From the NCBI GenBank assembly GCA_036495225.1, contig DASXNG010000054.1, forward strand, positions 1,633 through 65,632: 64,000 bases of DNA, read 5' to 3'. This document shows, piece by piece, positions 7,562 through 63,999 of the stretch (position 1 is the stretch's first letter; every line of letters begins with the position of its first letter). Source of the stretch: Galbitalea sp. Its GTDB lineage: Bacteria > Actinomycetota > Actinomycetes > Actinomycetales > Microbacteriaceae. Position numbers and translations under genes: made by a program. The notes beneath the pieces were generated by a model, which ran no database searches, had not been told where the DNA came from, and saw only the letters and a list, made by a program, of their open reading frames with translations.

Positions 7562-7563
7562 TC

Positions 7564-7608
7564 CAGTTAATCTACACTAACCTGAATCCAGTTAGCCACT
7601 ACTAACTG
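7564..7608. promoter_or_regulatory. two tandem palindromic operator candidates in the TetR / mccB divergent intergenic region
   Basis: CAGTTAatctacacTAACCTG (7564-7584) and the perfect CAGTTAgccactacTAACTG (7589-7608). Arms are 6 bp with an 8-nt spacer. Confidence 0.55.
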
Positions 7609-7629
7609 AGGACGTGGAAAGCGCGGTCG

Positions 7630-33212: not shown

Positions 33213-33286
33213 TGGAGGGGACGACGGGAATCGAACCCGCGTAATCAGTTTGGAAGACTGAGGCTCTACCATTGAGCTACGTCCCC
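33213..33286 (-). tRNA. tRNA-Gly (anticodon UCC), CCA encoded
   Basis: The reverse complement folds as a cloverleaf: GGGGACG-TA-GCTC-AATGGTA-GAGC-C-TCAGT-CTTCCAA-ACTGA-TTAC-GCGGG-TTCGATT-CCCGT-CGTCCCC-T-CCA. Confidence 0.9.
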
Positions 33287-33835: not shown

Positions 33836-33909
33836 CGGGGCGTAGCTCAGCTTGGTAGAGCGCTCGGTTTGGGACCGAGAGGTCGCAGGTTCGAATCCTG
33901 TCGCCCCAA
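33836..33909 (+). tRNA. tRNA-Pro (anticodon UGG), CCA not encoded
   Basis: CGGGGCG-TA-GCTC-AGCTTGGTA-GAGC-G-CTCGG-TTTGGGA-CCGAG-AGGTC-GCAGG-TTCGAAT-CCTGT-CGCCCCA-A. Position 1:72 reads as a C:A mismatch. Confidence 0.85.
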
Positions 33910-43949: not shown

Positions 43950-44001
43950 TCGCTGGACCACAGGTACCACCGCACCATCACATCAAAGGAGATTGCAGCA
44001 C

Positions 44002-45252: not shown

Positions 45253-45290
45253 ATCAGACCAGCATCATCGGTCGGCGCAGGTCGGCCACA

Positions 45291-45321
45291 GGGTCCCGAG
45301 GTCCACTCGGCCTCGGGACCC
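45291..45321 (+). other. intercistronic GC hairpin after the binding-protein gene
   Basis: gggtcccgagg-tccactcgg-cctcgggaccc (11-bp stem). Confidence 0.45.
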
Positions 45322-45360
45322 TTCCATATCTTTGAGCACAACCAAGGGGAAATCACCGGC

Positions 45361-46503: not shown

Positions 46504-48719
46504 TTCGGCATCGACCGTTCGGCTCCGGTCACCCGTACTCCGTCGATACGGAGCAGCGCTCTCCGGTTGATCCGATCGCGGGTGAACCGGTGACACTCGG
46601 TGTGCGAACCTCATCCGAAGTCACGGCTGTCGCGGTCGAAGTCGAACGGGGCGGCGCGAGCGAAGTGATCGCGTTGCAACCTGCCGCACGGCGGTCGAGG
46701 GGACAGCTCGTCGACGGCGGGCACCTGGCGTCGGCACAGGCGCGACTCGCGCGCTCATCGACTGGTTGGCAGGTCAGCCTGGGGAAGCTCCTCGAGGGCG
46801 AGCAAGTGAGATACCGCTTCACTGCAACGGGCAGGTCCCTCGAACACACGCGCTGGTTTGAATTTCGCGCTTCGGGATGGCACAGCTCACCGACTGCGGT
46901 AGTAGCGCACGGCGCGAGCCGCATCATTCCCGATTCGGTCAGCGTGTGCTCGGACGGCGACCACGTTCATCGACTTCGATTCGCCCTGCCACTAGCCCCG
47001 GCCGAACACGTCACTGGTCTCGGTGAGCGATTCGACGCTCTCGATCACCGAGGCTCCAGCCTGGACTCGACCGTTTTCGAGCAGTACAAGAGCCAGGGCG
47101 CCGAGCGCAAGACCTACCTTCCTATGCCGTTCGCTCACCTCGTCGGCGGGGATGGATGGGGATTCCACGTTCGCACCGCTCGTCGCGTCTGGTTCGACTT
47201 CGGAGAGAAGACGAGCGACCGCCTGTGGGTGGAGCTTGAGGTTGACGCGCCCTCGGGCGAAGCCGCTGCCGAGATTGCGTTCTACGACGGAGCGCCTCGT
47301 GAAGTGCTTGACGCTTTTCTCGCGGATGTCGGGCGCCCGCAGGAGTTGCCCTCCTGGGTGTTCCGACTTTGGGCGAGCAGCAACGAGTGGAACACGCAGA
47401 CCGAAGTGATGAAGCAGGTCGACCTGCATCGCGAGCACGACATCCCCGTCGGGTCTGTGGTGATCGAGGCGTGGAGCGACGAAAGCACGTTCACGGCGTG
47501 GCGCGATGCTCAGTATGTTCCCTCCCAGGATGGCTCCCCGTTGCGGCTGAAGGATTTCAGTTTCCCGCCGGATGGCGCGTGGTCAGACCCGAAGGGCATG
47601 ACCGACGAACTCCATGCACGTGACGTCAAGCTGCACCTCTGGCAGATCCCGCTACTCAAGATGCGACCTCATCCGACAGGGCAAGCCGCTGCGGATGCTG
47701 CCGCAGCCATTCGCGAGAATGTTCTCATCGAGGAGCTTGCTCCCACCGGGTCGCTGCGCCCCTATCGAAATCGAGGCTGGTGGTTCCCGCTCGGGCTCAT
47801 GCCAGATCTCACTGACGAGCGCGCCGCCGCGTGGTGGACGGAGAAGCGTCGCTACCTCGTTGAGGAAGTCGGTATCGACGGATTCAAAACCGACGGCGGT
47901 GAGCACGCGTGGGGCCGCGATCTGCGCTATCTCGACGGAAAACACGGCGACGAGGGCAACAACCTGTTCCCGGTCTTCTACGCCAAGGCATTCGGTGACC
48001 TATTACAGTCCGCGGGAAAGGCGCCTGTCACATTCAGTCGCGCCGGTTACAGCGGCAGTCAGGCGCACGGCGCTTTCTGGGCGGGGGACGAGAATTCGAC
48101 TTGGGAGGCGTTCCGCTGGTCGATGCTTGCGGGGCTGTCCGCGGCATCCAGTGGAATCGTCTATTGGGGTTGGGACATTGCCGGCTTCTCCGGGGAGATT
48201 CCGAGCGCAGAACTCTATTTGCGAGCGGCTGCCGCCTCAGCGTTCGTCCCGATCATGCAATACCACTCCGAGTTCAACCACCATCGACTGCCTTCGCGTG
48301 ACCGCACCCCGTGGAACATTGCCGAGCGCAGCGGTGACGCCCGTGTGTTGCCGGTATTCCGGCGATTCGCACAGATGCGTGAACGACTCGTGCCGTATCT
48401 GGCCGAGCAGGCACGACTGACGATCGAGACCAGCGCACCGCTCATGCGACCGCTCTACTTCGATCACCCAGGCGACGAGCGCGTGTGGGACTTTCCCGTG
48501 CAGTGGATGCTCGGCGACTCCATCCTCGTGGCGCCGGTGCTCGAGCCGGGAGCGGAGAGCTGGCGGGTCTATCTGCCCATGGGCGAGTGGGTGGACGCCT
48601 TCACCGGCGAAGCGGTACTTCCCGGAGTCGTCGAACGGTCCACACCGATCGACGAGCTGCCCGTGTACGTGAAGGCGAGCGAATGGCCGGCACTGTCGCG
48701 CATGTTCGCCGCAGAGTGA
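46500..48719 (+). CDS. glycoside hydrolase family 31 alpha-glucosidase-like enzyme
   Basis: 739 aa. GTGA overlap with the GH15 gene. VVIEAWSDE, GIDGFKTDGGE and FWAGDENSTWE blocks resemble GH31 catalytic regions. Confidence 0.78.
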   Translation: MIRHRPFGSGHPYSVDTEQRSPVDPIAGEPVTLGVRTSSEVTAVAVEVERGGASEVIALQPAARRSRGQLVDGGHLASAQARLARSSTGWQVSLGKLLEGEQVRYRFTATGRSLEHTRWFEFRASGWHSSPTAVVAHGASRIIPDSVSVCSDGDHVHRLRFALPLAPAEHVTGLGERFDALDHRGSSLDSTVFEQYKSQGAERKTYLPMPFAHLVGGDGWGFHVRTARRVWFDFGEKTSDRLWVELEVDAPSGEAAAEIAFYDGAPREVLDAFLADVGRPQELPSWVFRLWASSNEWNTQTEVMKQVDLHREHDIPVGSVVIEAWSDESTFTAWRDAQYVPSQDGSPLRLKDFSFPPDGAWSDPKGMTDELHARDVKLHLWQIPLLKMRPHPTGQAAADAAAAIRENVLIEELAPTGSLRPYRNRGWWFPLGLMPDLTDERAAAWWTEKRRYLVEEVGIDGFKTDGGEHAWGRDLRYLDGKHGDEGNNLFPVFYAKAFGDLLQSAGKAPVTFSRAGYSGSQAHGAFWAGDENSTWEAFRWSMLAGLSAASSGIVYWGWDIAGFSGEIPSAELYLRAAAASAFVPIMQYHSEFNHHRLPSRDRTPWNIAERSGDARVLPVFRRFAQMRERLVPYLAEQARLTIETSAPLMRPLYFDHPGDERVWDFPVQWMLGDSILVAPVLEPGAESWRVYLPMGEWVDAFTGEAVLPGVVERSTPIDELPVYVKASEWPALSRMFAAE

Positions 48720-48728
48720 AATTCGCAC

Positions 48729-49652
48729 CTACTGTCCGAGAACGCACTTCTCGAGGTTGTACTTCTCGATTTGGTCGTAGAGCGCTTGTTCGGTGGTGGC
48801 GGGCGTAACTCCGATGCCGCGAATGCACGTGCGCTCGGTGACGGCGGTGTACGACGTGCTCCAGTTCTCTAGCTGCCAGACGGTGTCGACCCGGTCAAAC
48901 TCGGTTGTGTAGCAACGCTGAAATGCGGCGTCGCCGTAGATGTCCCCTGGAGTCGCGTAGTCGAGTAGCGTCGTGTTACGCGGGACATCGCCTAACGGGT
49001 AGCCCGCGTCAGTCATGCACGCTGCGAAACGGTCATAGGCCGCTAGATACTCGATGCGCGTGACCTTGCCGTCGGCCAGTTCGGCGAGTTGGGCGGTTGA
49101 TGGCCCGAAGCTCGAAGCTGCAATCCAGGAGATCCAAACCGTGAATCGGAGGCCCGGGGCGGCGACAATCTTGAAGGTGTGGCTTCCCGTGCCGAAGACG
49201 GGCTCCTGACTAGCCGTCGGGTTGAACTGGTCTGACTCCCCACACGTCTGGCCGTCATCGTGTCCGTCGATCAGCGTCGTGAGCGTCCCGACATCCGTGC
49301 ATTCGAATGCAACGACGAGATTTGTCGCGCCGGCGGGTTTCTTCCCGAGCCGGATGATCGTGGTCCCGGCGCCGGATCGAACGATTGGAGCGTCGACAAG
49401 AATGGCGTTCTGATCGATGACTTGTTCGTGCGCCGCTTCCAAGAGCGCGTCGTTCACGGCGTGCTGCGGAGGCGCGTTGATCGTCGCAGCGGCAACCGCT
49501 CCGCCAGTCATCGCGCCTGCAATCGCGAAGATGATGATTGAGGTAACGACCAGCTTTCGGGAGGGTCGCCGCGAGTGCGCACTGCGCGAGACGAGTTTCA
49601 CGAGCGCGGTGCGCAACTCCGTGTCTCGGGAATCCAGAATTTCAGGCTTCAT
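48729..49652 (-). CDS. single-pass membrane protein co-transcribed with the ECF sigma factor (candidate non-canonical anti-sigma or sensor)
   Basis: Start MKPEILDSRDTELR overlaps the sigma gene stop by 11 nt. Layout: about 33-aa cytoplasmic tail, TM helix LVVTSIIIFAIAGAMTGGAVAAA, then an extracytoplasmic domain of about 250 aa containing 6 Cys. Confidence 0.6.
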   Translation of the reverse strand: MKPEILDSRDTELRTALVKLVSRSAHSRRPSRKLVVTSIIIFAIAGAMTGGAVAAATINAPPQHAVNDALLEAAHEQVIDQNAILVDAPIVRSGAGTTIIRLGKKPAGATNLVVAFECTDVGTLTTLIDGHDDGQTCGESDQFNPTASQEPVFGTGSHTFKIVAAPGLRFTVWISWIAASSFGPSTAQLAELADGKVTRIEYLAAYDRFAACMTDAGYPLGDVPRNTTLLDYATPGDIYGDAAFQRCYTTEFDRVDTVWQLENWSTSYTAVTERTCIRGIGVTPATTEQALYDQIEKYNLEKCVLGQ

Positions 49653-50211
49653 TGTTGGCTTCTTTCGCGAGCGAGCGTAGGGGAGTGGCGTGAGCTTCGA
49701 GTTGCCCCGCCAGGCGCGCTTTCGCGCGGGACAGTCGGGACTTGATCGTGCCCGGGGCAACGCCGAGTGCCGCAGCGGCTTCCTTTTCGGAATACCCGTC
49801 AAGCACGCACAGCGCGATCACCTGCCGGTCGGGAAGGGAGAGTTTCGCGAGTGCGGCACGAGCAACGTCATCGATGTCTTCTGCGTGATCGCGGCTGTGC
49901 TCGCCCGCGGGGAGCTTCGCCAGCAGCGCCTTGTAGCGGCGCTCGCCGCGCGCGAGATTCCGCGCCGAGTTGGTCGCGATTACGAGCAACCACGGCAGCA
50001 TCGAGCCGTCCACGAAGCGCGCGACATCGCGGCGTCGCCACGACTCGAAAAACGCGATCGCGACCACGTCGTCCGCGTCTGCCGCGACCGGCACGAGCCG
50101 ATAACTGTGCCGGTAGAGCCGAGAGCGATGGCGATCGAAGATGCGACCGAACGCTTCGCCGTCGCCTTCGAGCGCTGCCGCCCAAACGACTTCGTCGGAA
50201 TCCGTGGTCAC
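49642..50211 (-). CDS. ECF-type sigma-70 family RNA polymerase sigma factor
   Basis: 189 aa. Region 2 (RIFDRHRSRLYRHSYRLV) and region 4 HTH (LPDRQVIALCVLDGYSEKEAAAALGVAPGTIKSRLSRAKARL). Confidence 0.88.
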   Translation of the reverse strand: MTTDSDEVVWAAALEGDGEAFGRIFDRHRSRLYRHSYRLVPVAADADDVVAIAFFESWRRRDVARFVDGSMLPWLLVIATNSARNLARGERRYKALLAKLPAGEHSRDHAEDIDDVARAALAKLSLPDRQVIALCVLDGYSEKEAAAALGVAPGTIKSRLSRAKARLAGQLEAHATPLRSLAKEANNEA

Positions 50212-50260
50212 ACTACGTAGTGTCCGGCATCGTCCGATCGGTTCCCGCGATTGCCGTCGT

Positions 50261-52255
50261 CTACTGCATCGTCAACGCCGCGGACAGGATCGGTGCGGAA
50301 TCGAGGTAGCCGACCCGCGTCGCCGAAACGACCACGTGGTAGCTGTAACCCACCGAGAAGTCCGCAGAGTCCGCCGGGTCTGAGCTCAGATACAGCTGGT
50401 GTCCCGTTTGGCCGACGAGATTCACGAATCCGGATCCGTCGTGGCGGTCGACTTGCCACTGGTAGGTGAGGTCGAGGGCTACCGCTGGCCACGTGCCTGC
50501 CGTGGCGTTGATCACGTTGCCGATCACCACGAATGTGACGGTTTTGCCACCGACGGTGAGCGCGGGAGCCTTCGTCGCGACCACGGCGGCGCCTGGCTGT
50601 ACCGTCACAGCGTTCGATTCGAGCGGTGTGGTCGGTAGGAGGCCCGACTTGACAGGCTGAACCGTCACGCTGATGTCGTCAGAGAGATCGCTCGGCAAGA
50701 CGACGTACGTCGAGCTCGTCGCGTATGGGATCGGGTTGCCGTTCCGTAGCCACTGGTAGCGGTAGCTCGTCGGTGCTACGTCCCACTTGCCCACCGCGGC
50801 AGTCAGCGTGGCACCAACCTTGGTGACAGTGGCGACGCTCGGCGGGGTCAGGTTGGAGATGGGTGCAGCCGCGATCGCCGGGGTCAGATCGGAGACGCCA
50901 ACGATGGTCGCGTAACCGCTGCGCCTGCCGCTGACGTGAACGCTCAACTGTTGCCCAACATCCGCACTCGTTGGCACGTAGGTCTTGCCGGTCGCGTACG
51001 AGATCGGCGCGGCGCCCCGATACCACTGGTAGGTGACGGATGTCGGCGCAGGTGCCCAATTCGGAATGGTGGCCGTCAGCTTTCGCCCGACCGCCGGGTT
51101 GCCCGTGATCACCGGCACCGTCCCGACGAACGCAATGGCGGCTGTGACTGTGCCGACGTCGAGCGTCTGCGGCAAGCTCGCGATGTGGCCCCTCGCGTTG
51201 GCGACGATGCGCACAGTGATGTGGCGTCCGACGTCAGCCGTCGTGAAGACGTAGCTCCCCCCGATTGCGCCCTTGATCGCGACGCCGTCGCGCAGCCATT
51301 GGCGGGAGAAGCTTGCGTTCACGGGTGCGGTGACCGCATCAGAGTTGATTGTCGCAACGAAGTTGGGCTGAAGCGTTGGTGCGTTCACGGTTGGGCTCGT
51401 CAGGATCACGACCGCCTCACCCGTGCGCACCGGCACCTCGACGGACCTGGTCGCGTAGCCAGGCTTCGTGTCGGTAACGACCACCGTCAGTCGCGTGGTC
51501 GTGGATGTCGGGAGCGAATCCGAGAGCGTCGACCCACTGCCGAGCGTCGTTGGAATCGTCGATCCCGCCGGGTATTCTCGCCACTCATACGAGATCACGC
51601 CACCCGTCGGACTCCAAGAGCCGGGCGCGACCGAATACAGTCCGGTCGTGCTGTTGTGTGAAACCGATGATGCGTGAGTCTGTATCAGCGCCACGGCCGG
51701 CGCGATTGTCGGCACCGAGACGTCGAACGGAGTCGAGTCTGCGAAACCGACGCGATGCGCGGTCACAAGCAGGTCAAGCGTGGTCGGAAGGCCCCCCACG
51801 GGAACGTCTGCGGTCGTCGGCTTGTAGGTCGACGACGTACCGACGCTCACGGGGATCCCGGCTCCGACCGTGCGCGTCCACTTGTAGGTAAACGTGACGC
51901 CAGGCAGGTCCCAGTGGCCGGGGTTCGCGGTGAGCGTCGAGCCGACGCGCGCCGTGCCCGTCACCGCGGGATTGGCGACCGTGTTCGCGGCCGCGCCGAG
52001 GGCAACGGGGTCGAGGGCGTCGGTCGTGTAGCTGAGGTTTCTGAAGTCTTCGTATGACGAAGCGCCGATGCTCAGTGAGATTCGGGCGGTCGCGTCGCCG
52101 GGCTGCAGCGTATAGGTCGCACCCGTCGCGCCGGAGATCTGGTGTCCGTTTCGCAGCCAGTGGTAGAAGTAGGTGGTCGGCGACCCGATCCACGAGCCGG
52201 GATTAGCGATCAGGGTGTCACCAACCTGGACCCCGTCGCTGGCGTCGATGGTTGG
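50261..52255 (-). repeat. 7 tandem protein-level repeats of about 85-95 aa (C-terminal module of protein A)
   Basis: Each unit carries GxxL(T)AxxGxW...(F/Y)xYxWxRxGxxIxGATxxTYxxxxxDxGxxIxVxV. The DNA copies are divergent. Confidence 0.75.
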
Positions 52256-55200
52256 CGGATTGCCCGGGTCTGCCTGTGGCTCGAGGAGTTCCTGGCCCGA
52301 CACGGGATCCGTGAGGTCAACCTCGCCCAGATCGTTCGGGGCGCCAGCAACGTACGTCTGAAGAACGACCTCGTTGTAGGAGTTCTCGTCCGTGAACGCG
52401 TCGATGGTCACGTTGTACCAGCCGGGGGCAAGGTTTGCGATAGTCGTCGCCCCATCGATCTGGGCGGGGCCAAAGAGCTCGTCGCCGATGGTCTCGCTCG
52501 AGAGAACGGTCGTTTTTGAGTCATCCAGTCGATCGACGGTGATGAAACCCTCGAGGGGTTCCGCGCTTGCGCCGACGAGGTTGAAGGAGATAGCACCCGA
52601 GTAGGTCGGCAGCTGAATGTTCTGATTCGCGATGGGAGCACTGACCGCGACGATCTTGGTGGAGTCAGCAGGCACGTCCGTCCCGCCGAGGAACGTGGTC
52701 GCGCCGCTGTCACCCGCGGTGATGAATTCCAGCACGTATGTTCCGGGGAGAAGCGAGAGGGAGTAGTTGCCCTGGTCGTCTGTAAGGTCCAGTCCAGCGC
52801 GCGGTTGCTCGCTCTGGCCCAGGCCGAAGATGCCATCGCCGAACTGCGCGACTCCGTCGACGTAGGGGAACGCCTGCACGCGAAGCTGCACCGCGGGCGC
52901 ACCCGTGGAGTCGAGTACGCGTCCACTGACGTGTACTCGGCCGAGGAGTGCCGCGCTGCGCGTCGTGGTGGTCTTGTCCCGCACAAACGCCGTGGCGCTC
53001 GCGGAGGCGTACGCGAGGTTCGGCTCGCCCGAGTTCGGGTCGTTGAAGCTGACGTCGTAACTTCCTGGCGTGAGCCCTGGGACCACGTACGCGCCTTTGG
53101 AGTTGGTGGTGGCGGTGCCTGTCCCGTCGAAGCCGCCAAAGTCATTTTCTCCAGCGATGGATGTCTCGGTCGCGGTCACCTCCACGCCGGCGATTGCCTT
53201 CCCGGCCTTCTTGTTGGTGACAACGCCGGTGATGGACCCTCCGCCAACGATGTGAACCTCACGGTAGGCCGTCGTGCCCTCCGCGGTGACGTCCACGGCC
53301 TCGGAGAGGGTCGGATCCGTGCTTCCGCCCATGAACTGGGTCGCGTATGCGGATCCGGCTGGCGGCGTCAGTTCGAGGTAGTAGCTGCCGGGATCCAGGC
53401 CATAGATGCTGAAGGTTCCGTCGTTTACGGTGACGTCATCCGTGCCGTAATAGGAATCTTCGAATGTGATGCCTCCGAGGGATGACTTTGGAACAGCGAT
53501 GACATCCACACCCGACACGGGTTTGCCATTTGTGCCAAGGACGATGCCCCGAATTCCTGTGGTGTGCAGCAGTTCGATCTGGCCAAGGGGCACGGAAGCC
53601 GAGTTGAGAGCGACCGCGGGCTCCTCGATCGTCCGCGTGCTGTAGCTGTCGTCGTAGGACATGAAACTGAGCGAATGGGCACCGGGAAGCAGCCCGGTAA
53701 GAGTGAAGACGCCGCTGCTGTTCGTGGTCGCGTCGCTCGTTGCGTACCCGTTGTTGAAGAAGTCATTGTCAAAGACGTCGACATTCCGAATGCCGTGTCC
53801 GTTGCTGTCGACAACGGTGCCCGTGTATGAGCCGCCTCGCTGCAGGTGCACGTCTTCCTGTGCATCCTGGCCGGCACCCAGTGCGAGCAGGGGGACGTGG
53901 GAGTCTGCTTCGCCGGGCACTCCGCCGATGTCTTGCGCCAGATGTACCGCATCCCCTGCGTCGACGGCGATGCGGTAGTTCCCAGGCGGTAGACCCGTCA
54001 CCGTATATGAGCCGTTGTTGTCCGTCGTTGTCGACACATCCAGGTTGTCCGGACTCGACTGCGCTCCGGTGCCGTTGACCAGTCGTACGTCGACTTCGGC
54101 ACCGTCGAGTGCAGCTTCGTTCATCGCGTCGAGAACATGCCCATGAATGGTTGCGGTTCCGACCTCATTGAAGTCGATGCCCTCGTGGACGCTCAACGCG
54201 GTCACGGTGAACGTCGATGCGAGATCCTCTGCTGAGACGCCCGGGAACCACTGCGTTGCTACTGCTTCGTTGTTCGGCACAAGCTCCACGCCGTAATTGC
54301 CAGCGGAAAGACCTTTGATCGTGTAATTGCCGTTGGAGTCCGTGGTCGCGTAATGGTCTCCAGCATCGCTGTGGCCTTCAACCGCGGTCGCGCCGAAGTT
54401 CTGAGGCGCGGACACCGTTTCGCCAGAAATTGGCACGCCGCTTGATGAGACGGTTCCAGACAGGATGCCCCCCGGATCTAGCGCAACGTTGACGTTCGCG
54501 GTCGTGCCACCTGCCGCGACCTTGAACTTCGAGGTGTTTTCACCCGTGTAGTTGTTGGCGAAGAACTCGTCCTGGTAGTTGCCGTTGCCGTGGTAGTTGA
54601 CGAACACCGTGTACGTTCCGGGAGCGACGCCACCGATCTTGTACGTGCCGTTTGCTGCGATCACACCCGGGTCGGTTCCTTGGCAATCCGCATATGTTTC
54701 GGAGTCGTAAGACTCAATGGGGCAGGCCTCGATCGATACGTCGCTCGAGGTGAGCGCGCTGTGATCCGCCGTAGAGATGACGCCTGTGATTGAGCCGGCT
54801 CGCGATAGCCGAACACTGTAACCGGTGAGGTGCGCGCCGGCGGCCAGCGAGATCGGGTCTGCCCAGTCCGCGATTGGCTCGTCCTGCCACCACGAGTCGT
54901 GGTACTGGACGGACGCGGACAGCTGCGAAGCGAAGTGCAGAACAATCTCATCGCTCGCGGGGAGGTTTGCGAGCGTGTACGCCCCCGTGCTCGAGGTCTT
55001 CGCCGTCTCGATGGGGATGCCGTTGATGGCGTCACCCAGATCGTAGAAGGCGCTCACGAGGATGCCGCCAATCGCGGCGTTCGAGGTGTTCTTCACGGTG
55101 CCGCCAATGCTCGCGCCGGAGAACAGCGCGAAGTCGGCGACCGCCGACTGATTGGGCGCTGACAGCTCGACGTCTTTGGCGTCAGGGTACGGCGACGCGT

Positions 55201-56035
55201 AGTAGTCGCCGTTGCTGTCCTGCATCGCGTAGCCATTCGACCCGCCCGCCTCGGGCACGAAGACGCCCGTTGGCAGGTTCGCAAAGGAGTACGCACCGTT
55301 CGCGCCAGTGGTTGTGGTGGCGTATGGGTACGCGCCCTTCGCACCGTGGGCGTCGAAACCCTGGATGAAAAGCTTCACGGTTTGCCCGGCGAGTGGATGT
55401 GCCACGCGGTCGTCGACCACGCCGCTGAGGTTGTCTCCGAGCGGTAGTGTCACCCCAGAAATGCTGGAAGGTGTGTCGGCGGGGAGGCTGACGAACTGTG
55501 TGCCACCGCTGGAATGCCCCGCGATCTCGTCATCGAGTCGAACGCCGCCGCCCTGAAAGGCTGGCGCATCCTTGTAGGCGCCAACGACTGAATTCTTGAA
55601 GTCGTATTCGAAGTCGTACTGTCCGATGGGCAGGCTCGCGAACTGCCAGTTACCGGAGCTCGCCGTTACGGTCGACGCGACGTTCGTGGCGGACACGCCG
55701 TCGGGGTTCAGCTTCCAGGCCTTGACGCTCACCTGCCCGGCCGCCGCGAAGTCGACTTGGGCGGGTGCACTGGTGACCGACGCTATGCCGCTGACGATTC
55801 CGGTTGCCGTACCAGAGGCTGACGCCGAAACGCCAACCAGCACGGGGATGCTGCCGCCGAGGAGTGCGGCGAGCGCGATGCCGGCTAGTGCGATTTTTGG
55901 TCGGCGAGTCCTCGTTCTCGTGTCTCTGTCGGTGGCAGCAAGAGCTCGAGATGCGGTCACGTTCTGGCCAATCGGTCGGGCGCTGCACGAACGCGAGGTT
56001 GCCCGCGACCGCGACACTGTGCCGGGAATCCACAA
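50261..56035 (-). CDS. giant secreted repeat protein A (up to 1924 aa): about 11 CarboxypepD_reg/Cna-B-like beta-sandwich repeats followed by 7 Ig-like W-YxW-GAT repeats
   Basis: Uninterrupted ORF. The N-terminal signal has [22 protein letters not shown]...ASASG. An alternative GTG start lies near 55960. Recurrent T(T/D)xxGxYx(I/L)xGLxPGxY units. No LPXTG and no C-terminal TM. Confidence 0.85.
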
Positions 56036-56156
56036 ACTCTATTGGACGCGAAGGGGGCTCACAATCGACTCGAGGTGTAGATCGACCTGTGCGACTGCCC
56101 CAATCAGAGGGCCAACCCATCGGAATGCGCGGTCGAATCTCCCAGTTGCACAGTGC

Positions 56157-57179
56157 ATGACTTCGATCGTTGGTCGCCCCCTCTCCGTGCTGGATCTCGC
56201 GTCGGTGTACGAGGGGATGTCGCACGCGCAAGCGATCGCCCAAACCATCGAAACCGCGAAGCTCGCCGACGACCTCGGATATCGGCGATTCTGGGTGGCT
56301 GAGCACCACGGCATGCCCGCAGTGGCGAGTTCTGCTCCGGCGGTTCTGATCGGAGCTATCGCCGCAGCCACGTCGAGGATTCGCGTCGGCTCCGGCGGAG
56401 TCATGCTGCCGAATCATTCGTCGATGGTCATCGCGGAACAGTTCGGCACACTCGTCGCCCTGCATGGCGATCGCATCGACCTGGGACTTGGTCGTGCGCC
56501 GGGAACCGATCAGCTCACGGCATCCATACTCCGACGCAACATTGGCGCCGAGACAGTGGATGATTTCCCCAACCAGGTCGTCGAGTTGCTGGCATTCTTC
56601 GGGCTGATTCCGCCTCTCGAGAACGGTCTGGGTGAACGACCGGCCGCGCATCCGGGGCTCGGCGACGCACCGGAAATGTGGTTGCTCGGCTCAAGCGGTT
56701 TCAGCGCCCAGCTCGCGGGCATGCTCGGACTGCCGTTCGCCTTCGCGCACCATTTCGCGGGCGGAGACAACACGCCGCTCGCATTCCAGCTCTACCGCGA
56801 CAGTTTCGAGCCGAACGAACGCCGGGCGGAACCCCACTCAATGGTGGCCGTTGCGGCGCTCGTCGCCGACAGCGAAACGGATGCCGACCGGCTGGCTCTG
56901 CCGAATGGCCTGTATTTCAGCCGCCTTCGTTCCGGAGCGCGCCCCGGCAGAATCCCGACGCTGGCCGAGGCCGAGGCGCACGAGTGGACGCCCGCGGAGC
57001 TCGAGTTCGTGCGTGAGCGCAACGCACAGCAGGCCGTCGGAACGCTCGCGCACGTGACATCCCGCCTTCAGTCGTTGGCGGAGTCGACGGGGGCCGACGA
57101 ACTGATTGTCGTGCCCCAAGGTCCAGACCTCCCCACGAAGCTCCGCACCCTCACCGATTTGGCATCGAATGCCCTCTAA
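56157..57179 (+). CDS. LLM-class (luciferase-like) flavin-dependent oxidoreductase
   Basis: Start [39 protein letters not shown] is typical of the family. The TAA stop lies inside the downstream palindrome. Confidence 0.85.
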
Positions 57180-57231
57180 GTGCTAGTTGGGGTGCACTCG
57201 CACTCGCACCCGCACATACAGGGCATTCGAT
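57163..57231. terminator. hairpin of the ATCGAATGCCCT family between the convergent LLM gene and giant gene B
   Basis: catcgaatgccctctaagtgc ... gcacatacagggcattcgatg with nested gggtgc/gcaccc. The arms differ from the 37462-37524 copy at 1 position each. Confidence 0.6.
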
Positions 57232-57235
57232 GAAG

Positions 57236-60200
57236 TTAGGGGACGGTCACCGCCGCACTCACGAGGTCCACCGACGCGTGACCGGGGCGGGACGCGTGCA
57301 CAATGAGCTGAATGTGGTCGGCGTGACCGACCTCCGGCAGGTTCGGCGTGTACGTTGAGCCGGCTGCGCCCGAAATGGGTTGCCACATCGGGTTGACCGG
57401 CGTGTTGTACTGCCACTCGAACGTCAGCGTCACCGGATAGTTCCAGGCGCCGTAGCTCGCGGTGAGCAGTTTGCCGAGCCCGACCGTTCCGGTGATCTTG
57501 ACCGGCGTCGCTGGCGCGAGAGGGGCGCCCAGACCTATCGTGACGGGTGCGCTCGCTGCCACTCGCGGGTCGTAGTACGGCTTCTTCGCGGTGACAATAA
57601 CCAGAATGTCGTCACTCAGATCGTTCGCCGTCACCGTGTACTTGGTACCGGTTGCGCCGGGGATGTCGTTGCCTCCGCGGGTCCACTGGTAGGTGAAGGC
57701 GAGCCCGGAGGTCGACCAGATCCCAGGAGTCACCGTCAGGACACTGTCGACTGTCGGGCTCCCGGACACGGTCGGATTGACCGAGTAGCCGAGGCTGGTG
57801 CCCGACTGCTCGACCGCCCCAACCGCCGTGAACTTCGTGGTCGTCCACCCCGACTTGGTGACCGTCACGACCACTGAGATCTTTTTGCCGACATCGGCCG
57901 CGACTGGCGTGTAGTTCTGGGACGTCGCGCCGGAGATGACCACTCCGCTCCGGTACCACTGGTACGTCACGGTCGGAGAGACCACCGAGAAGAACGTCCA
58001 GCCTGCCGTGAGCTGCTGGCCGGTTGTCGGGGTGCCGCTCACGTTCACGGGAGTGAGGGCCGTGATGGCGCCCCCTCCGCGCGCCGTGACCGTCGCGCTC
58101 GAGTCGGCGTACCCGGTCTTCTTGACCGTCACCGTGACGGCGATCTCGTAGCCCGCGTCCGCAATTGTCGGCGTGTACGTGGGAGAGTCACCGCCGATGG
58201 GGTCGGCCACCCCACCCGGCGAGACATGATGCCACGCGTAGTGAACCTCGGTTGGCATCGGACTCCAGGTGCCAGGCGACACAGAAAGCACGGTGCCGAC
58301 CGCCGTCACGGCCGGAGCTTTGGTCATCGCGAACTGACCCGAACCAGACTGGCCGGGATCCGCGATGAAAACCGTCCCCGGCAGATAGCCGGTCCTGGAC
58401 GCCGTGATCTGCACGCCGACGTACCAGGTGGCCATGGCAGCAACCGGAACAACGAAGGTGGAGGATGTCGCGCCACCAACGGTCGTCCAGTTCGAGCCAT
58501 CCGGTGACGTCTTCCACTGGTAGCCGAAGGTGACGCCAGGGATGCTCCACGTTCCCGGGTGCGCGGTCAGCTTGCTTCCGACCACGTTCGCCCCGCCGAT
58601 GCTGGGAGCCTGCGCGCCCGAACCCGCGACCGGTGCCGACCCGTTCGTGATGGTGAGGCTATTCGAGATCACGGACGCCGAGTTGTAGTTCACGTGGCTT
58701 GCTGTCTCGACCAGGCGGATGTGCTTTGCGAAGTAAGCCGCGGTGGGCGCCCAGGTCGGAGAACTCGCACCGGGGATGCCGAGCCAGCTCGTGCCCGATT
58801 GGTACTGCCACGCGTACGTGAGCGTCGAGTTGGCGATGCTCCAGCTGATCGGGCTCGCGGTTGTCGCGACTCCCACAGTTCCACCGGTGACGGTCAGGGT
58901 GCTGGCGGTCGTTTCACCACCCTTGCGAGCGAGGATGATCGGCCCAAACGTCTGCTGATAACCACCCACGGCGTTGGCCACCGCCTGCACTCCAATGTGC
59001 GCGTGCAGGTGCGAGCCGAATGGGAAGGTTGGGCTTACGGTAGCTGGCCCCGGCGAGTCATTCAGATCGTAGACGAACCAGTTGTAGGTGACCGGAGCGG
59101 CAGGTGAAAACGTTGCGCCTGATGCACTCAGTGTTGTCCCGCTGACCGTGACCTTCGGTGCACTCACCGGGTCCCGATATCCGGGAGTCACCGGTCCACT
59201 CGCGGCGACGGTCGCGGTCACCGTCGCGTGTCCGGCGAGATGAGCCGTGACATCCACTGCGATCTTCTTGCCCAGCAGGCTTTGTGGAATCCTGTACGTC
59301 GACCCCGTGCTGGTGCCCGGCGCCTTGGTGAACGGAGCCAGACCCGTCGCGCTGTACTTCCACTGGTAGGTGAAGCTTGTCGGCGATGGCGTCCATGTGC
59401 CGGTGTTCGCGCTAAGGACAAGCGCGGTGCCGGGGGTACCGGAGATGCTCGGCGCAACGCTGACCGCCATGGGCGCGGCGACGACCGGGGTCGGCTCCGC
59501 GAACATCAGCGTCTTCGTCGCGTAGCCGGTCTTGCTGGCCCTAACTGTGAGCCGAAGCATGTGTCCGATATCCGCGACCGTCGGCGTGTAGTTGCACGTT
59601 GTGCCACCAACGACGGACTTCCAACTGGTGCCTGACTTGTACTGCCACGCGCACGTGGTCGAGGTGGGCGCCGGTGTGAAGCTTGGGACGATCGCGGTGA
59701 GTGGTGACCCGAATACCGGCGTCCCGGTCACGGTCAGCGGAGCGCTCGCGACCGGCGCGGCGCCCAGCTGCACGGTGATGCGTGGGGCGAAGTATGGCGT
59801 GTATCCGTCGTTCTCACGGAAGACCTCGACCGTGACGTACTTACCCGATGTCCCAGCACGGGGGAGGGATGCGTTGTCGCTGTGCGGGGTCGCTGGGACG
59901 CCATCCACTTCCCACAGGTACTTTGTCGAACCAACATTGGGAGACCAGCTGGCAGCCGACGCGGTCCAGGTCGTCGAGCTGGTGGATACGGTTGGCGCCG
60001 TCACCAGCTTGAAGACACCCGGCTGCACGCCATCCGGCGGGGAGTCGTACACGAAGGTCGTGTAGCCGAAGTGCGACGCCGTCACCTCGATACGGATGTA
60101 CGGTCCGTTGGCAAGATCGTCGGCCGTTTCCGTGTGTGTCGGTCCAGTGGCACCGGGGATGTTCGTCCAGGTGTTTCCGTCTGGACTCGTCTGCCACTGC

Positions 60201-60590
60201 AGCGATTCCGTGACTCCTGAGACGTTCCAGCCTGTCGAGGCGTACTTCAGGGTGCGACCCACCTGGCTCGTGCCCGCCAGGTAGCCTCCGCCAGAGTTGG
60301 CGTAGAGGGTGCCAGCGGTGATCGGACCGATCGCCGCCGAGTCCGAGCTTCCAGAGCCGTAGGTGAAGTCATATGCCGTCGTCCTCGCGGAGATCATCGT
60401 TCCGTAGTCATTGGCCTGCAGAATGTATGTCTGGTGCGTAGCGCCGGGGATCGGCACCCCGTTGCGCAACCACTGGAACGTCTCCTTTGCCGGATCGACG
60501 TCATCGGCATTCCAATCGCCGTGGGGGATTATCACCTGGTAACCGACCTCGACTCCGTAGTTCGAGATGAGGGTCGGCGTGACGGTCTGC
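57236..60590 (-). repeat. 12 tandem protein-level repeats of about 85-95 aa (C-terminal module of protein B)
   Basis: Example units: GQQLTAGWTFFSVVSPTVTYQWYRSGVVISGATSQNYTPVAADVGKKISVVVTVTKSGW and DSVLTVTPGIWSTSGLAFTYQWTRGGNDIPGATGTKYTVTANDLSDDILVIVTAKK. Confidence 0.75.
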
Positions 60591-61999
60591 AGCCCGCCGA
60601 CAGGTTTCTTGTCGAGGGCGATTTGGGTGGTAAGCGGCGGATCCGTCTTGTAGGACACGTTGTACGACCCGCCCACGAGTTTGCGCTGCCACACGTTCAC
60701 TGCGGGGTCGGTGCTGGTGTTCGAGCCCGCGGCCACCTGATAGAAGCCGCTGGCGAGGCCGGGGAACGAGAAGTTGCCCTGCGCATCGGTCGTCGTCGTA
60801 ACCGCGCCATTGCTGGGCTGATCCGTGAGCGCCCCATCGTGATCGAGCGTGACGGGGATGTTGGGAATGCCGACGATCGTCGGAAGCTGACTGTTGTCCA
60901 CGACCTGGCCGGTAAGCGCGTCGCCCGGGTACAACTCGACATCCGCGTGCTGCAGCGTCGTGCCAGCAGTCACCAGGAACGGAGTGTCGAGCGTGCCGTC
61001 GTTGTGGTTCCCGAGGAACTCGCGACCGTAGATGGTGTTCGACGCAGGCAAGGGGGCAGTCGTGCGCGGCGCAAACTCGAGCGTGTAGTAGCCCGGCGCG
61101 AGCCCCGTGAGCGAATACGTGCCATCCGTCTTCGTGAGAGTGGACCGGAGTCCGAGTGACGAGTGCCCGGTGAAGCTGGGGTAAGGGCCTTCGAGGCGAT
61201 AGGGCGTCACGACCACACCGGCCAGGTTCTCGACCGTCGATCCGGAGTTACCGGTCACGGTGCCGGAAATCGCACCTGCCTTGCCGAGCGTGAACGAGTA
61301 TGCCGTGGTCTTTCCTGCGATCACCTCGAGAGCGGATGCCGCATCCAGGCTCGTCGCCCCGCCGGAGTACCCGGGACCGTAGGCCGCCGCGCCGGAGGCG
61401 AGCAGCACCTGAAGCTGGTATGACCCCGGCTCGAGTCCGGTGATCGAGTACGAGCCCGTCAAACTCGTCACGGCACTGCGCACCGGGGTTTGGTCGCTGC
61501 CGTTCGCGTAGGCGCGCACGGTGTAGCCCTGGAGGGCGACGTGCGTGGTTGTCTTGACCGAACCGGAGATCGTGCCTGACGCGAGCAGTGCCGCATTGAT
61601 GGTGTGATGGTCGGTCGCACTGACATCAAAACTCTTGGCGCTCGCGCCGTCCGAAGTGTCGCCAAGGTATTGCGTGTACGTCGTCGCTGACGCACCGAAC
61701 CGCAGCGTGTACGTGCCGTTCGCGAGTGTGCTGAAGGCGTAGCTGCCAGTTGTGCTCGTCGTCGTCGCGGCGATCGCGGGCGAAGAGTCGACGGGAAAGG
61801 TGACGACGGCAACGCTGAGTCCGGCGATGGCGTTGCCAGTCGGGCCCGTCACGGTGCCGACGAGTTGTGGCGATGCCGCCTCTGCGGACAGCGGCACCAA
61901 CGCGGTTGCGACGATGGCGAGTACGGCGGCAAGGCATCCCAGGATCCAAAGGCGTGCAGCCCTTTGGTGCGCAGTGGAGGGACGTCGGGTCGCGGGCAT
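57236..61999 (-). CDS. giant secreted repeat protein B (1587 aa): 4 CarboxypepD_reg/Cna-B-like repeats followed by 12 Ig-like W-YxW-GAT repeats
   Basis: Sec-type signal MPATRRPSTAHQRAARLWILGCLAAVLAIVATALVPLSAEA|AS. Same two-module architecture as protein A. No LPXTG and no C-terminal TM. Confidence 0.88.
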   Translation of the reverse strand: MPATRRPSTAHQRAARLWILGCLAAVLAIVATALVPLSAEAASPQLVGTVTGPTGNAIAGLSVAVVTFPVDSSPAIAATTTSTTGSYAFSTLANGTYTLRFGASATTYTQYLGDTSDGASAKSFDVSATDHHTINAALLASGTISGSVKTTTHVALQGYTVRAYANGSDQTPVRSAVTSLTGSYSITGLEPGSYQLQVLLASGAAAYGPGYSGGATSLDAASALEVIAGKTTAYSFTLGKAGAISGTVTGNSGSTVENLAGVVVTPYRLEGPYPSFTGHSSLGLRSTLTKTDGTYSLTGLAPGYYTLEFAPRTTAPLPASNTIYGREFLGNHNDGTLDTPFLVTAGTTLQHADVELYPGDALTGQVVDNSQLPTIVGIPNIPVTLDHDGALTDQPSNGAVTTTTDAQGNFSFPGLASGFYQVAAGSNTSTDPAVNVWQRKLVGGSYNVSYKTDPPLTTQIALDKKPVGGLQTVTPTLISNYGVEVGYQVIIPHGDWNADDVDPAKETFQWLRNGVPIPGATHQTYILQANDYGTMISARTTAYDFTYGSGSSDSAAIGPITAGTLYANSGGGYLAGTSQVGRTLKYASTGWNVSGVTESLQWQTSPDGNTWTNIPGATGPTHTETADDLANGPYIRIEVTASHFGYTTFVYDSPPDGVQPGVFKLVTAPTVSTSSTTWTASAASWSPNVGSTKYLWEVDGVPATPHSDNASLPRAGTSGKYVTVEVFRENDGYTPYFAPRITVQLGAAPVASAPLTVTGTPVFGSPLTAIVPSFTPAPTSTTCAWQYKSGTSWKSVVGGTTCNYTPTVADIGHMLRLTVRASKTGYATKTLMFAEPTPVVAAPMAVSVAPSISGTPGTALVLSANTGTWTPSPTSFTYQWKYSATGLAPFTKAPGTSTGSTYRIPQSLLGKKIAVDVTAHLAGHATVTATVAASGPVTPGYRDPVSAPKVTVSGTTLSASGATFSPAAPVTYNWFVYDLNDSPGPATVSPTFPFGSHLHAHIGVQAVANAVGGYQQTFGPIILARKGGETTASTLTVTGGTVGVATTASPISWSIANSTLTYAWQYQSGTSWLGIPGASSPTWAPTAAYFAKHIRLVETASHVNYNSASVISNSLTITNGSAPVAGSGAQAPSIGGANVVGSKLTAHPGTWSIPGVTFGYQWKTSPDGSNWTTVGGATSSTFVVPVAAMATWYVGVQITASRTGYLPGTVFIADPGQSGSGQFAMTKAPAVTAVGTVLSVSPGTWSPMPTEVHYAWHHVSPGGVADPIGGDSPTYTPTIADAGYEIAVTVTVKKTGYADSSATVTARGGGAITALTPVNVSGTPTTGQQLTAGWTFFSVVSPTVTYQWYRSGVVISGATSQNYTPVAADVGKKISVVVTVTKSGWTTTKFTAVGAVEQSGTSLGYSVNPTVSGSPTVDSVLTVTPGIWSTSGLAFTYQWTRGGNDIPGATGTKYTVTANDLSDDILVIVTAKKPYYDPRVAASAPVTIGLGAPLAPATPVKITGTVGLGKLLTASYGAWNYPVTLTFEWQYNTPVNPMWQPISGAAGSTYTPNLPEVGHADHIQLIVHASRPGHASVDLVSAAVTVP

Positions 62000-62097
62000 A
62001 GTTCTCCTCGTTCGGGTCGTGAGGATACCTAGTTTGGCGCGCGCGCCGTGTGCGCCGCTATGGGTAGTGACTACCTAGATCGGTGGGTGACCGCGGG

Positions 62098-63999
62098 TTA
62101 CTCAAGGCCGCGACGCTTCAAGAGCGGGTCAATTTCCGCGTCCCGGCCGCGGAAGTCGCGGAACGCCACCAACGGGTCCTTCGAACCGCCAACCCCGAGC
62201 AGGCGCTCGCGAAAGCGATCGCCGTTCGCGCGCGTCATCCCGCCGTTCTCTTTGAACCATTCGACCGTGTCCGCGTCGAGAACCTCGCTCCAGATGTACG
62301 AATAGTAACCGGCGTCATAGCCGCCGGAGAAGGTGTGCGCGAAGTACGAGCTGTAGTAGCGAGAAGGCACGACCGGGTTGTCGAGACCGAAGCTTGCGAT
62401 CGCGTCCGTCTCGAATTTCTCGACATCGGTGATCGTGTCATCCGGTCCCATGCGATGCCAGGCCTGGTCGAGCAGGGCAGCCGTCAGGTACTCGCTCGTG
62501 GCGAAGCCCTCATTGAACGAGGATGAGGCTTGCAGCTTGTCGACGAACTCCTGCGGCATTGGCTCGCCGGTCTCGTGGTGGACGGCGTAGTTCGCGAGAA
62601 CCTCCGGCCACAGCATCCACATCTCGTTGACCTGGCTCGGGAACTCCACGAAGTCCCGGAAGACGTTCGTGCCAGCGAACTTCGGGTAGGTGACGTGTGC
62701 GAACAACCCGTGCAGGGCGTGCCCGAACTCGTGGAAAAGTGTCTCGACCTGGTCGTAGGTGAGCAGCGTGGGCGACCCGGCTGCAGGCTTCGGCACGTTG
62801 TGGTTGTTGACGACGACCGTCGGGCTGCCGAGCAGGGTGTTCTGCGAGATCAGTGGATTCATCCATGCGCCGCCGCGCTTCGAGTCGCGCGTATAGAGGT
62901 CATAGAGGAAGAGGCCGACGGGTGAGCCATCCTCGTTCGAGACTTCGAAGATCCGAACATCCGGGTGGTAGCCGACGAGGTCTTTGCGCTCCTTGAAGGT
63001 GACGCCATAAACCTTGGTCGCAGCGAAGAAGACGCCGTCGTGGAGCACGCGCTCCGCCTCAAAGTACGGGCGCATCTCCGACGTGTCGACGTCGTACTTC
63101 GCCTTGCGCACCTTCTCGGTATAGAAGGCCCAGTCCCAGCTCTTCAACTCGAAGGCGTCGCCGATGATGTCCTGCAGGTCCTTCTGTTCAGCCTTCGCGT
63201 TGCGCGCTGCCGGGGGAGCGAGGCGCTTCAGCATCGCGTCGACTGCCTCGGGAGTGCGGGCCGTCTCATCTGATGTGACGACCGCTGCGTGGTCGGGGAA
63301 CCCGAGCAACGCCGCCCGTTGCGCGCGAATCTTCGTGATCTCGAGCACGAGCTCCCGGTTGTCGTATTCGCCGCCGCGGGCTCCGCGCGCTCGCGACGCG
63401 GTCATGATGCGCTCGCGGACATCCCGATTCGTCAGGGCATCGAGGTACGGATGCCCCGTGTACAGCACGAGCGTGACGAGGTATTTGCCGTCAAGCCCGC
63501 GCTCCTTCGCTGCCTCGGCAGCGGCGGAAAGCTCGCCCTCGCTGAGCCCGTCAAGCTCTTTCACATCGTCGATGACGATTGCGAGGTCGTTGGTATCTGA
63601 GAGCAGGTTCTTCTCAAACCTCGTGCCCAGCGTGGCGAGGGTCTGGTTGTACCCCATGAGCGTCGCCTTGTCCTCGTCGCTGAGGCCCGCGCCGGCGACG
63701 GTGAACTCGGTGTAGTACCGCTCGATCAGGTAGACGGACTCCGCATCGAGCCCGAGGATGTCGCGCCGCTTGTACAGCGACGCGATGCGCGCGTACAGCC
63801 GCGGGTTCAGCCGGATGGCGTCGGAGTGCGCAGCGAGCAGCGGAGCCATGTCTTGTTCGAGCTCGTTCGTATAGTCGTTACTGTCCGCGGACGACTGGTT
63901 GAAGAACGCGTTGGCTACGCGCTCCAGAATCTGGCCGCCACGTTCCAGCGGGATGAGGGTGTTCTCAAACGTCGCCGGGTCGGGGTTCTCCGCGACGGC
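62098..63999 (-). CDS. dcp: M3 family peptidyl-dipeptidase / oligopeptidase (Dcp-like); the N-terminus lies outside the window
   Basis: HEFGHALHG zinc motif. My hand translation upstream of the first ATG (63850-63999) stays open to the window edge (…AVAENPDPATFENTLIPLERGGQILERVANAFFNQ…). Confidence 0.88.
   Translation of the reverse strand, partial: AVAENPDPATFENTLIPLERGGQILERVANAFFNQSSADSNDYTNELEQDMAPLLAAHSDAIRLNPRLYARIASLYKRRDILGLDAESVYLIERYYTEFTVAGAGLSDEDKATLMGYNQTLATLGTRFEKNLLSDTNDLAIVIDDVKELDGLSEGELSAAAEAAKERGLDGKYLVTLVLYTGHPYLDALTNRDVRERIMTASRARGARGGEYDNRELVLEITKIRAQRAALLGFPDHAAVVTSDETARTPEAVDAMLKRLAPPAARNAKAEQKDLQDIIGDAFELKSWDWAFYTEKVRKAKYDVDTSEMRPYFEAERVLHDGVFFAATKVYGVTFKERKDLVGYHPDVRIFEVSNEDGSPVGLFLYDLYTRDSKRGGAWMNPLISQNTLLGSPTVVVNNHNVPKPAAGSPTLLTYDQVETLFHEFGHALHGLFAHVTYPKFAGTNVFRDFVEFPSQVNEMWMLWPEVLANYAVHHETGEPMPQEFVDKLQASSSFNEGFATSEYLTAALLDQAWHRMGPDDTITDVEKFETDAIASFGLDNPVVPSRYYSSYFAHTFSGGYDAGYYSYIWSEVLDADTVEWFKENGGMTRANGDRFRERLLGVGGSKDPLVAFRDFRGRDAEIDPLLKRRGLE

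Follow-up and report, generated by a model that had tools for sequence, protein, structure and literature searches.

Two giant genes on the minus strand of a 64,000-nucleotide stretch of a Galbitalea sp. contig (DASXNG010000054.1; referred to here as the window) probably encode members of a lineage-specific family of Sec-secreted, beads-on-a-string proteins that are fibrillar-adhesin-like and consist of a stalk only. In this reading, which has a probability of about 0.62, the adjacent genes for an extracytoplasmic function (ECF) sigma factor, its membrane protein partner, and a luciferase-like monooxygenase (LLM)-class flavin oxidoreductase are independent neighbors. Giant gene A (50261..55960) encodes 1899 amino acids (aa) from a GTG at 55960, with its stop codon at 50261-50263, and its maximal open reading frame (ORF; 50261-56035) gives 1924 aa from a TTG at 56035. 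Giant gene B (57236..61999) encodes 1587 aa in 16 domains and is preceded by a ribosome-binding site, GAGGAG, 6 nt 5' of its ATG. The computed sizes and isoelectric points (pI) are about 190 kDa and 4.4 for A and about 158 kDa and 6.2 for B, and the acidic composition has high proportions of S, T, G, A, and V. A and B are real genes, as their G+C content and that of their third codon positions (GC3, 0.78-0.80) are similar to those of adjacent genes and both have full-length orthologues. An NCBI protein from a Galbitalea sp. metagenome-assembled genome (MAG) is 100% identical to B, in agreement with the Microbacteriaceae setting assumed in the initial annotation. The initial annotation, which was made from the DNA alone, had placed five ORFs in this region, all of which are present in the ORF list, and had described A and B as paralogous secreted giants with a common two-module beta-sandwich architecture, a description that holds.

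In both predicted products a signal peptide is followed by two tandem arrays. Module 1 of A (52259..55813, minus strand; pI 4.1) contains 11 transthyretin-like (CarboxypepD_reg/SdrD-B-like) beta-sandwich units with a period of about 105-120 aa, 3 of which match weakly, and module 1 of B (60581..61876, minus strand) contains 4 such units, recognized by Pfam and by a hidden Markov model (HMM) of our own. Module 2 comprises 7 immunoglobulin (Ig)-like units of the Hoc/SCAB/A9 type in A (50264..52258, minus strand; own HMM, alignment, and PDB profile) and 12 Ig-like units in B (57239..60580, minus strand; own HMM and unit alignment). The units were counted with iterated HMMs seeded with one unit per repeat class, which reproduced exactly the counts proposed earlier (11 + 7 in A and 4 + 12 in B), for a tandem total of 15 CarboxypepD_reg/SdrD_B/SpaA-like units and 19 Ig-like units. 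The reading of module 1 as a CarboxypepD_reg-type array agrees with Pfam, in which CarboxypepD_reg matches A with an E value of 5.7e-52 and B with 6.2e-21, and SdrD_B (3.5e-32) and SpaA (2e-17) give overlapping matches on module 1 of A. The Ig-like units are 89-99 aa long, with a period of 91-99 aa in A. Unit-to-unit identity among the repeats is 21-37%, the sole invariant residue of the Ig unit is the Trp of a YxW motif, and the Ig arrays of A and B are only about 30% identical to each other. No DNA-level tandem repeat was detected in the giant genes by Tandem Repeats Finder.

The Ig-like units resemble domains known from phage particles. A profile of the 19 units searched against PDB matched a phage tail protein (9c2d; E value, 7.7e-9), T4 Hoc (5vf3; 1.7e-8), the C-terminal decoration domain of T5 pb10 (5lxk; 5.3e-6), and the Ig domain of plant SCAB1 (4dix). 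The best Pfam models for the unit are SCAB-Ig (PF16709) and IG_AIR9 (PF23197), for which the whole-protein scores of B pass the gathering scores (38.9 versus 27.6 and 34.1 versus 27.5 bits, respectively), while A (20.8 bits) and single Ig units fall short of them. An AlphaFold2 model of Ig unit 11 of B is a seven-strand sandwich with an Ig fold and a predicted local distance difference test (pLDDT) score of 95. In Foldseek searches with this model, the top match in PDB was again the SCAB1 Ig domain 4dix, and the matches in BFVD were phage Ig-like domains with TM-scores of 0.85-0.90, identities of 27-41%, and root mean square deviations of 1.1-2.2 Å. The profile matches to Hoc, pb10, and SCAB1 and the fold of the model uphold the earlier I-set-Ig-like description of the second module, and, judged by profile and predicted fold, the unit is of the same domain type (Hoc/SCAB/A9) as that found on phage virions.

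B and A represent two separate families. Eleven further full-length relatives of B (1583-1611 aa, with 35-50% identity and 96-100% coverage) were retrieved from Galbitalea, Glaciihabitans, and metagenomes. The length of B-type proteins is fixed at 1583-1626 aa despite identities of 34-53%, deep paralogues within a genome included, and unit-versus-unit matrices are dominated by the diagonal, the Ig units of B being orthologous position by position. Module 1 is the best conserved part, with column identities of 0.44-0.48 (T1-T3) versus 0.34-0.42 in the Ig units. Paralogues within a genome have diverged (34-53%) to the same degree as orthologues between genomes, and clear orthologous pairs of B-type proteins, all about 1600 aa long, are L009_1/L010_1 (75%) and L009_2/L010_3 (74%). 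A frameshift, pseudogenization, or an assembly error has divided the middle B-type paralogue of L010 (14907-19790) into two ORFs, one of 525 aa and one of 1101 aa. The A-type proteins are 1853-1920 aa long, and their identities to A are 94% (L004), 40% (L008), and 32% (L017). The giants diverge far faster than their flanks, with identities of 36-49% for B versus 74-86% for the neighboring M3 peptidase and 74-87% for the LLM. Three independent metagenome assemblies (L001-L003) are identical to the window at 46.5-51 kb, and each is broken within the Ig array of A; giant genes thus break up assemblies and are likely underrepresented in MAGs.

Gene order in the relatives, whose loci were viewed with flanks of up to 10 kb on each side, separates the giants from the sigma factor and membrane protein genes (the sigma pair). 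The order B-LLM-A-sigma-membrane of the window recurs in L004, a 93% relative (93-94%). Giants are missing from L005 (a 42% relative; M3 peptidase-LLM-sigma-membrane) and L007 (a 36% relative; M3 peptidase-LLM-BenE-sigma/membrane), and the sigma pair was not seen around the giants in seven loci of six lineages. These seven are L008 (M3-B-LLM-A-Wzy_C/TPR-Fic-giant), L009 and L010 (M3 followed by three B-type genes in tandem), L012 from Glaciihabitans (M3-B-LLM), L017 (BenE-A-A-Wzy_C/TPR), L019 (M3-x-B-LLM-x-giant-giant), and L020 (M3-B-B'-third gene). The LLM gene adjoins the M3 peptidase gene in relatives at 74-87% identity with or without giants. The occurrence of this backbone without giants and of giants without the sigma pair indicates that the sigma pair and the LLM gene are backbone genes and the giants are variable cargo. 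By this comparison of gene order, Galbitalea/Glaciihabitans-type Microbacteriaceae have a hotspot that is bounded by the M3 peptidase gene and the clpX region and holds from 0 to 3 or more giants, which are gained, lost, and shuffled, and the LLM gene is a housekeeping-type backbone gene outside the giant-protein system. The initial annotation had combined all five genes into one ECF-sigma-linked, regulated apparatus and had suggested examining whether the sigma/membrane pair is syntenic with the giants in related genomes. It is not, the promoter motif of the sigma gene does not occur upstream of A or B (see below), and the LLM gene is independent; the position of the latter between the giants on the opposite strand was given correctly, and its part in a common apparatus falls away. 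Adjacency of genes such as those for the sigma factor and the LLM in one genome can mislead without comparative context. A prophage or phage origin of the giants, prompted by their Hoc-like domains, was rejected because the surroundings consist of tig-clpP-clpX, sugar utilization, and leucine catabolism genes.

The elements upstream of the sigma gene and of B-type genes also differ. An ECF-type promoter-like motif, GGAACCGATC-N6-TGCCGGACAC (50220..50245, minus strand), lies 8 nt before the GTG of the sigma gene, and L004, L005, and L007 each have an identical copy in the corresponding place. It occurs once in each sigma-carrying locus and not at all in loci without a sigma gene, is single in the 64-kb window even with 3 mismatches permitted, and was not found upstream of A or B in scans of the window. 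This motif appears to be a promoter through which the sigma factor autoregulates its gene, and since only 8 nt separate its end from the GTG, the mRNA probably has no leader or almost none. An ECF-like motif 5' of A (GGGCAAC...CCGAC) was rejected, since its spacer is about 20 nt and it mismatches the conserved sigma promoter. B is preceded, 63 nt 5' of its ATG, by an imperfect palindrome, TAGGTAGTCACTACCC (consensus, TRGGTA-N4-YTACYC; 62062..62077, minus strand), a half-site copy of which (CTAGGTA) is present at 62026-62032. Upstream alignment and motif scans located the palindrome 5' of B-type genes in the window, L008-L012, L019, and L020, and it precedes B-type starts by 60-80 nt (126 nt in L012) in all lineages examined; motif scans did not find it in L005, L007, or L017 or 5' of A-type genes. 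With one mismatch permitted, 0.22 occurrences would be expected by chance in the window. TRGGTA-N4-YTACYC may be an operator or promoter element that is confined to B-type genes. Consensus scans of 48.5-62.3 kb gave no sigma-70 promoter-like site and two terminator-like sites, both within B and fewer than in shuffled sequence. The gap between A and the sigma gene is 175 nt in L004 (49 nt at 50212-50260 in the window) and holds, between A and the sigma promoter, a hairpin with a 10-bp stem (L004 9320-9361; CCCCAAATCG...CGATTTGGGG; -21.7 kcal/mol); this segment has been lost from the window.

Each giant has one hydrophobic segment, which is N-terminal. The predicted Sec signal peptide of B (61877..61999, minus strand) ends VPLSAEA/AS, and the Pro at position -6 (P36) and the A-x-A site (A39 and A41) are invariant in all 12 members of the B family, which argues for cleavage by signal peptidase I, as would follow from the Sec-type signal with AEA/AS originally assigned to B. 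A possible lipobox in B (ILGC) was rejected, as it sits where the hydrophobic region begins and is preceded by R16. The start of A is uncertain; the GTG at 55960 is the most plausible because a normal n-region of 22 aa results. The predicted Sec-type signal peptide of A (55814..55960, minus strand), read from sequence, ends SASA/SG. A Tat-type signal had been suggested for A, the n-region of which (TRRPKIA) fits the Tat motif S/T-R-R-x-F-L-K poorly; B is without such a motif. The RR is not kept in the A-type orthologues P0201 and L017_A2, which makes Tat unlikely, and Sec export of A is more likely.

Neither giant carries a recognizable anchor. A and B both stop exactly at their last Ig unit, and their orthologues, including all 12 B-family proteins and the A-type orthologues, end in the same way. 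No sortase motif (LPXTG) and no C-terminal hydrophobic segment or transmembrane helix is present in A or B, and Pfam and NCBIfam scans of both detected no SLH, LysM, GW, choline-binding, or other wall-binding domain. The reported lack of LPXTG, C-terminal transmembrane helix, SLH domain, and lipobox is thus borne out and extends to 12/12 B-family proteins. Only 49 nt separate the stop of A from the sigma gene and 56 nt separate that of B from the LLM gene, so that a frameshifted C-terminal anchor has no room.

The absence of an anchor had been presented as unusual, and a broad survey points the other way. When the Ig-unit profile was scored against 1.84 billion protein-cluster representatives, 56,969 representatives matched at an E value of ≤1e-3 and 27,059 matched at ≤1e-10, with arrays of up to 57 units. 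LPXTG and a C-terminal transmembrane segment are both lacking in 144 of the 150 best matches, and many of these proteins finish at an Ig unit; proteins from MAGs of Propionibacteriaceae and other actinobacteria also run from a signal peptide through a CarboxypepD_reg array and an Ig array to the end. About half of fibrillar-adhesin-like (FA-like) proteins are without a known anchor (Monzon, Lafita, and Bateman, 2021, PMC8286594). Judged from these sequences, the lack of an anchor is the rule for such proteins and no peculiarity of the Galbitalea locus, and A and B form a new and well-delimited family in a very large class of giant Ig-repeat proteins that have no anchor and have received little experimental attention. 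Tens of thousands of bacterial clusters with long Hoc/A9-type Ig arrays, which Pfam models weakly, constitute a blind spot, and for most of these array proteins no anchor, ligand, or function is known; no paper relevant to bacterial homologues came up in a literature search on A9/AIR9. A scan of genome contigs with the B-family alignment yielded two Microbacteriaceae MAGs and distant Ig-repeat matches, and as it was limited to two peptide patterns, taxonomic breadth is undersampled; a scan of genome contigs with the membrane protein yielded no relative. With 16 fixed domains, deep paralogues, a hotspot, and a candidate cis-regulatory palindrome, the Galbitalea/Glaciihabitans family offers a tidy study case, in which retention on Gram-positive envelopes and binding targets could be addressed.

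In the favored reading, the signal peptide would be cut at the conserved A-x-A site, and the mature proteins (about 160-190 kDa), with 18 sandwiches in A and 16 in B, would form rods tens of nanometers long. Hoc-type Ig domains on phage particles are reportedly linked to weak glycan or mucin binding, and by analogy with phage Hoc, the many diverged Ig domains of A and B may provide weak multivalent binding to glycans, polysaccharide, or cell surfaces. Retention at the cell, if any, would be noncovalent or by an unknown sortase-independent route. The sigma operon would be driven by its own autoregulation-type promoter, and the B-type genes have a different palindromic element of their own family upstream. 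Several points weigh against this reading. The relatives are all from metagenomes or MAGs, and the absence of giants from L005 and L007 holds for the locus with its 10-kb flanks, not for whole genomes. Targets of the sigma factor may use a motif looser than the one searched, and cotranscription of A with the sigma gene by read-through is possible, as the window has no terminator between them. Signal peptide cleavage was judged by eye alone, and the term adhesin draws on an analogy with phage Ig domains in proteins that have no recognized ligand-binding domain. A structural or decoy role at the surface would account equally well for the constant number of domains and the rapid divergence.

The giants might then be structural envelope rods of 16 or 18 domains that make up a noncovalent surface layer, spacer, or sheath and diverge under pressure from phages or predators. 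This is unlikely, even if much of the family's behavior agrees with it: domain number is strictly kept at 34-50% identity in orthologues and deep paralogues, divergence is fast relative to the flanks, presence at the hotspot is variable, genomes carry multiple paralogues, the composition is acidic with an abundance of S, T, G, A, and V, and an O-antigen-ligase-like Wzy_C/TPR gene is associated with the giants in relatives. However, the SLH or other wall-binding module by which an S-layer protein would be recognized is lacking, and the constant number of domains could stem from the absence of DNA-level repeats, which leaves no substrate for slippage or recombination. It is very improbable that both giants work with the sigma factor, a membrane sensor, and the LLM as a single regulated extracellular apparatus and that the giants are part of the regulon governed by the neighboring sigma factor. 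In both the window and L004, which is 93-94% identical, A does immediately precede the sigma gene in the same orientation, no hairpin would stop read-through between them in the window, and the order B-LLM-giant recurs in L004, L008, and L019. These observations are outweighed by the sigma/membrane/LLM/M3 backbone that persists without giants in L005 and L007, by the seven loci in six lineages where giants occur without the sigma pair, and by the Wzy_C/TPR gene that takes the place of the sigma gene after A-type genes in L008 and L017. Moreover, the sigma promoter motif occurs in the window at the sigma gene only, B-type genes have a different element, and a strong stem-loop separates A from the sigma gene in L004.

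It is also quite unlikely that the giants are fully released exoproteins acting as soluble or matrix scaffolds that bind soil polysaccharide or particles and possibly serve the GH31/GH15/ABC cluster nearby. A conserved signal peptidase site in proteins with no anchor of any kind would suit such a role, as would the company that these Ig-like domains keep with glycan-interacting phage proteins and the GH31/GH15/ABC/ROK cluster adjoining the locus. That cluster, however, accompanies the giant-free locus L005, is missing from L004, which has giants, and is hence unlinked, and Pfam and NCBIfam scans of the giants revealed no carbohydrate-binding module (CBM) or enzyme domain. A bolder proposal, speculative and improbable on present evidence, is that the B-type and perhaps the A-type proteins define a class of sortase-independent envelope fibrils of fixed length in Microbacteriaceae that are encoded in a hypervariable surface island, answer to a regulator of their own that recognizes the palindrome, and are retained or modified by an undescribed route. 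If true, it would imply 16 noninterchangeable domains, O-glycosylation or ligation, e.g., by the Wzy_C/TPR protein, and diversification under phage or predator pressure. The reading of A and B as secreted, stalk-only, fibrillar-adhesin-like proteins beside independent neighbors is preferred.

The neighboring genes have features of their own. The ECF sigma factor gene (49642..50211, minus strand; 189 aa; GTG start) was identified by Pfam (Sigma70_r2, r4_2, and ECF) and TIGR02937 (57.6 bits versus a cutoff of 42.9). It lies on the same strand close 3' of A, as had been claimed, with a gap of 49 nt rather than 50 nt, and its end is overlapped by 11 nt by the ATG of the single-pass membrane protein gene (48729..49652, minus strand; 307 aa), in accordance with the overlap noted earlier. 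Gene calls on metagenome contigs with identical DNA left both sets of coordinates unchanged. Just 11 homologues of the membrane protein were detected; in their alignment an N-terminal helix is conserved, a transmembrane segment follows, and at least 4 Cys residues are invariant. No more than about 35 aa lie on the cytoplasmic side, the conserved helix has a low pLDDT score, and the AlphaFold2 model (pLDDT, 72) has an extracytoplasmic part that consists of a beta-sandwich (83-179) and a helical domain and contains the invariant Cys residues. No Pfam or NCBIfam family, anti-sigma families included, matched this protein, and the Foldseek matches of its model, all of the generic jelly-roll, CBM, or GOLD kind, had low TM-scores and were uninformative. 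In L007, a single reading frame (10001-11215; P0008, 404 aa) joins sigma region 2 alone (about 109 aa) to the membrane protein and could represent a Rosetta-stone fusion or a gene pair in decay. The gene overlap and this truncated-sigma fusion suggest a partnership, and the membrane protein, the gene of which is translationally coupled to the sigma gene, may plausibly act as the cognate anti-sigma factor or as a sensor.

The LLM gene (56157..57179, plus strand; 340 aa) encodes an MsnO8-family flavin oxidoreductase, with a TIGR03558 score of 384.7 bits versus a cutoff of 166.95. The listed ORF of the M3 peptidase gene (62098-63849, minus strand) is 583 aa long and its orthologues are 673-676 aa long, so the true start probably lies upstream, near or beyond the end of the window. 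In two independent lineages, a gene for a membrane protein with Wzy_C (O-antigen ligase/polymerase-like) and TPR domains lies directly 3' of A-type giants (L008 21905-23695 and L017 13683-15509), and its products of 596 or 608 aa share 46% identity. This protein may be a glycosylation or attachment partner of the A-type giants; no homologue is found in the window.

A cluster comprising a ROK regulator, an ABC sugar transporter, GH15, and GH31 (40878-48719) adjoins the membrane protein gene. It is variable, being present in the window and L005 and missing from L004, where Fic and clpX come directly, and a link between this sugar cluster and the giants was rejected on synteny. An Rfam scan of the window found two tRNA genes alone, both distant from the locus (33216-33286, minus strand, and 33836-33909, plus strand), just 5' of the trigger factor-clpP1-clpP2-clpX block. 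The tRNA at 33836-33909 overlaps the maximal trigger factor ORF, and the trigger factor start must therefore be further downstream. Positions 3551-13673 hold an ordinary branched-chain/leucine catabolism cluster unrelated to the giants, with E1 and E2 dehydrogenase components, methylcrotonyl-CoA carboxylase subunits, an acyl-CoA dehydrogenase, and an HpcH-type lyase.

Among known systems, the Ig units of A and B are homologous to those of T4 Hoc, T5 pb10, and phage tail and decoration proteins, with which they have the YxW...G..I.GAT..TY signature in common. Phage Ig proteins have 1-4 units, whereas A and B have 7-12, are chromosomal with no phage genes nearby, and, unlike T4 Hoc, contain no capsid- or tail-binding domain. 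Plant SCAB1 Ig and the A9 repeats of AIR9 supply the best Pfam models and the best PDB fold match (4dix), but SCAB1 and AIR9 are cytoskeleton-associated eukaryotic proteins, in contrast to the bacterial, predicted secreted A and B. Similarity to the Ig domains of Salmonella ZirU of the ZirTSU system (NF040485) is below threshold (36 bits for A and 59 bits for B versus a 100-bit cutoff); there is no ZirT-like transporter, and the Galbitalea host is Gram positive. The Sdr/Cna-type MSCRAMMs of Gram-positive cocci share the signal peptide followed by tandem SdrD_B/SpaA-like sandwiches but differ from A and B in having LPXTG and an A-region ligand-binding domain, and the score for NF012181 (MSCRAMM_SdrD) is 15.6 versus a cutoff of 2500. 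A parallel in design is offered by the FA-like proteins (PMC8286594), which likewise are long and secreted and have a stalk of tandem beta-sandwiches (SdrD_B, SpaA-like, CarboxypepD_reg, and Ig-like); of the features that define a fibrillar adhesin, A and B have this tandem stalk and lack a recognized adhesive domain and a surface anchor. In contrast to the near-identical, fast-varying repeats of many adhesins, the repeats of A and B are old, diverged, and fixed in number.

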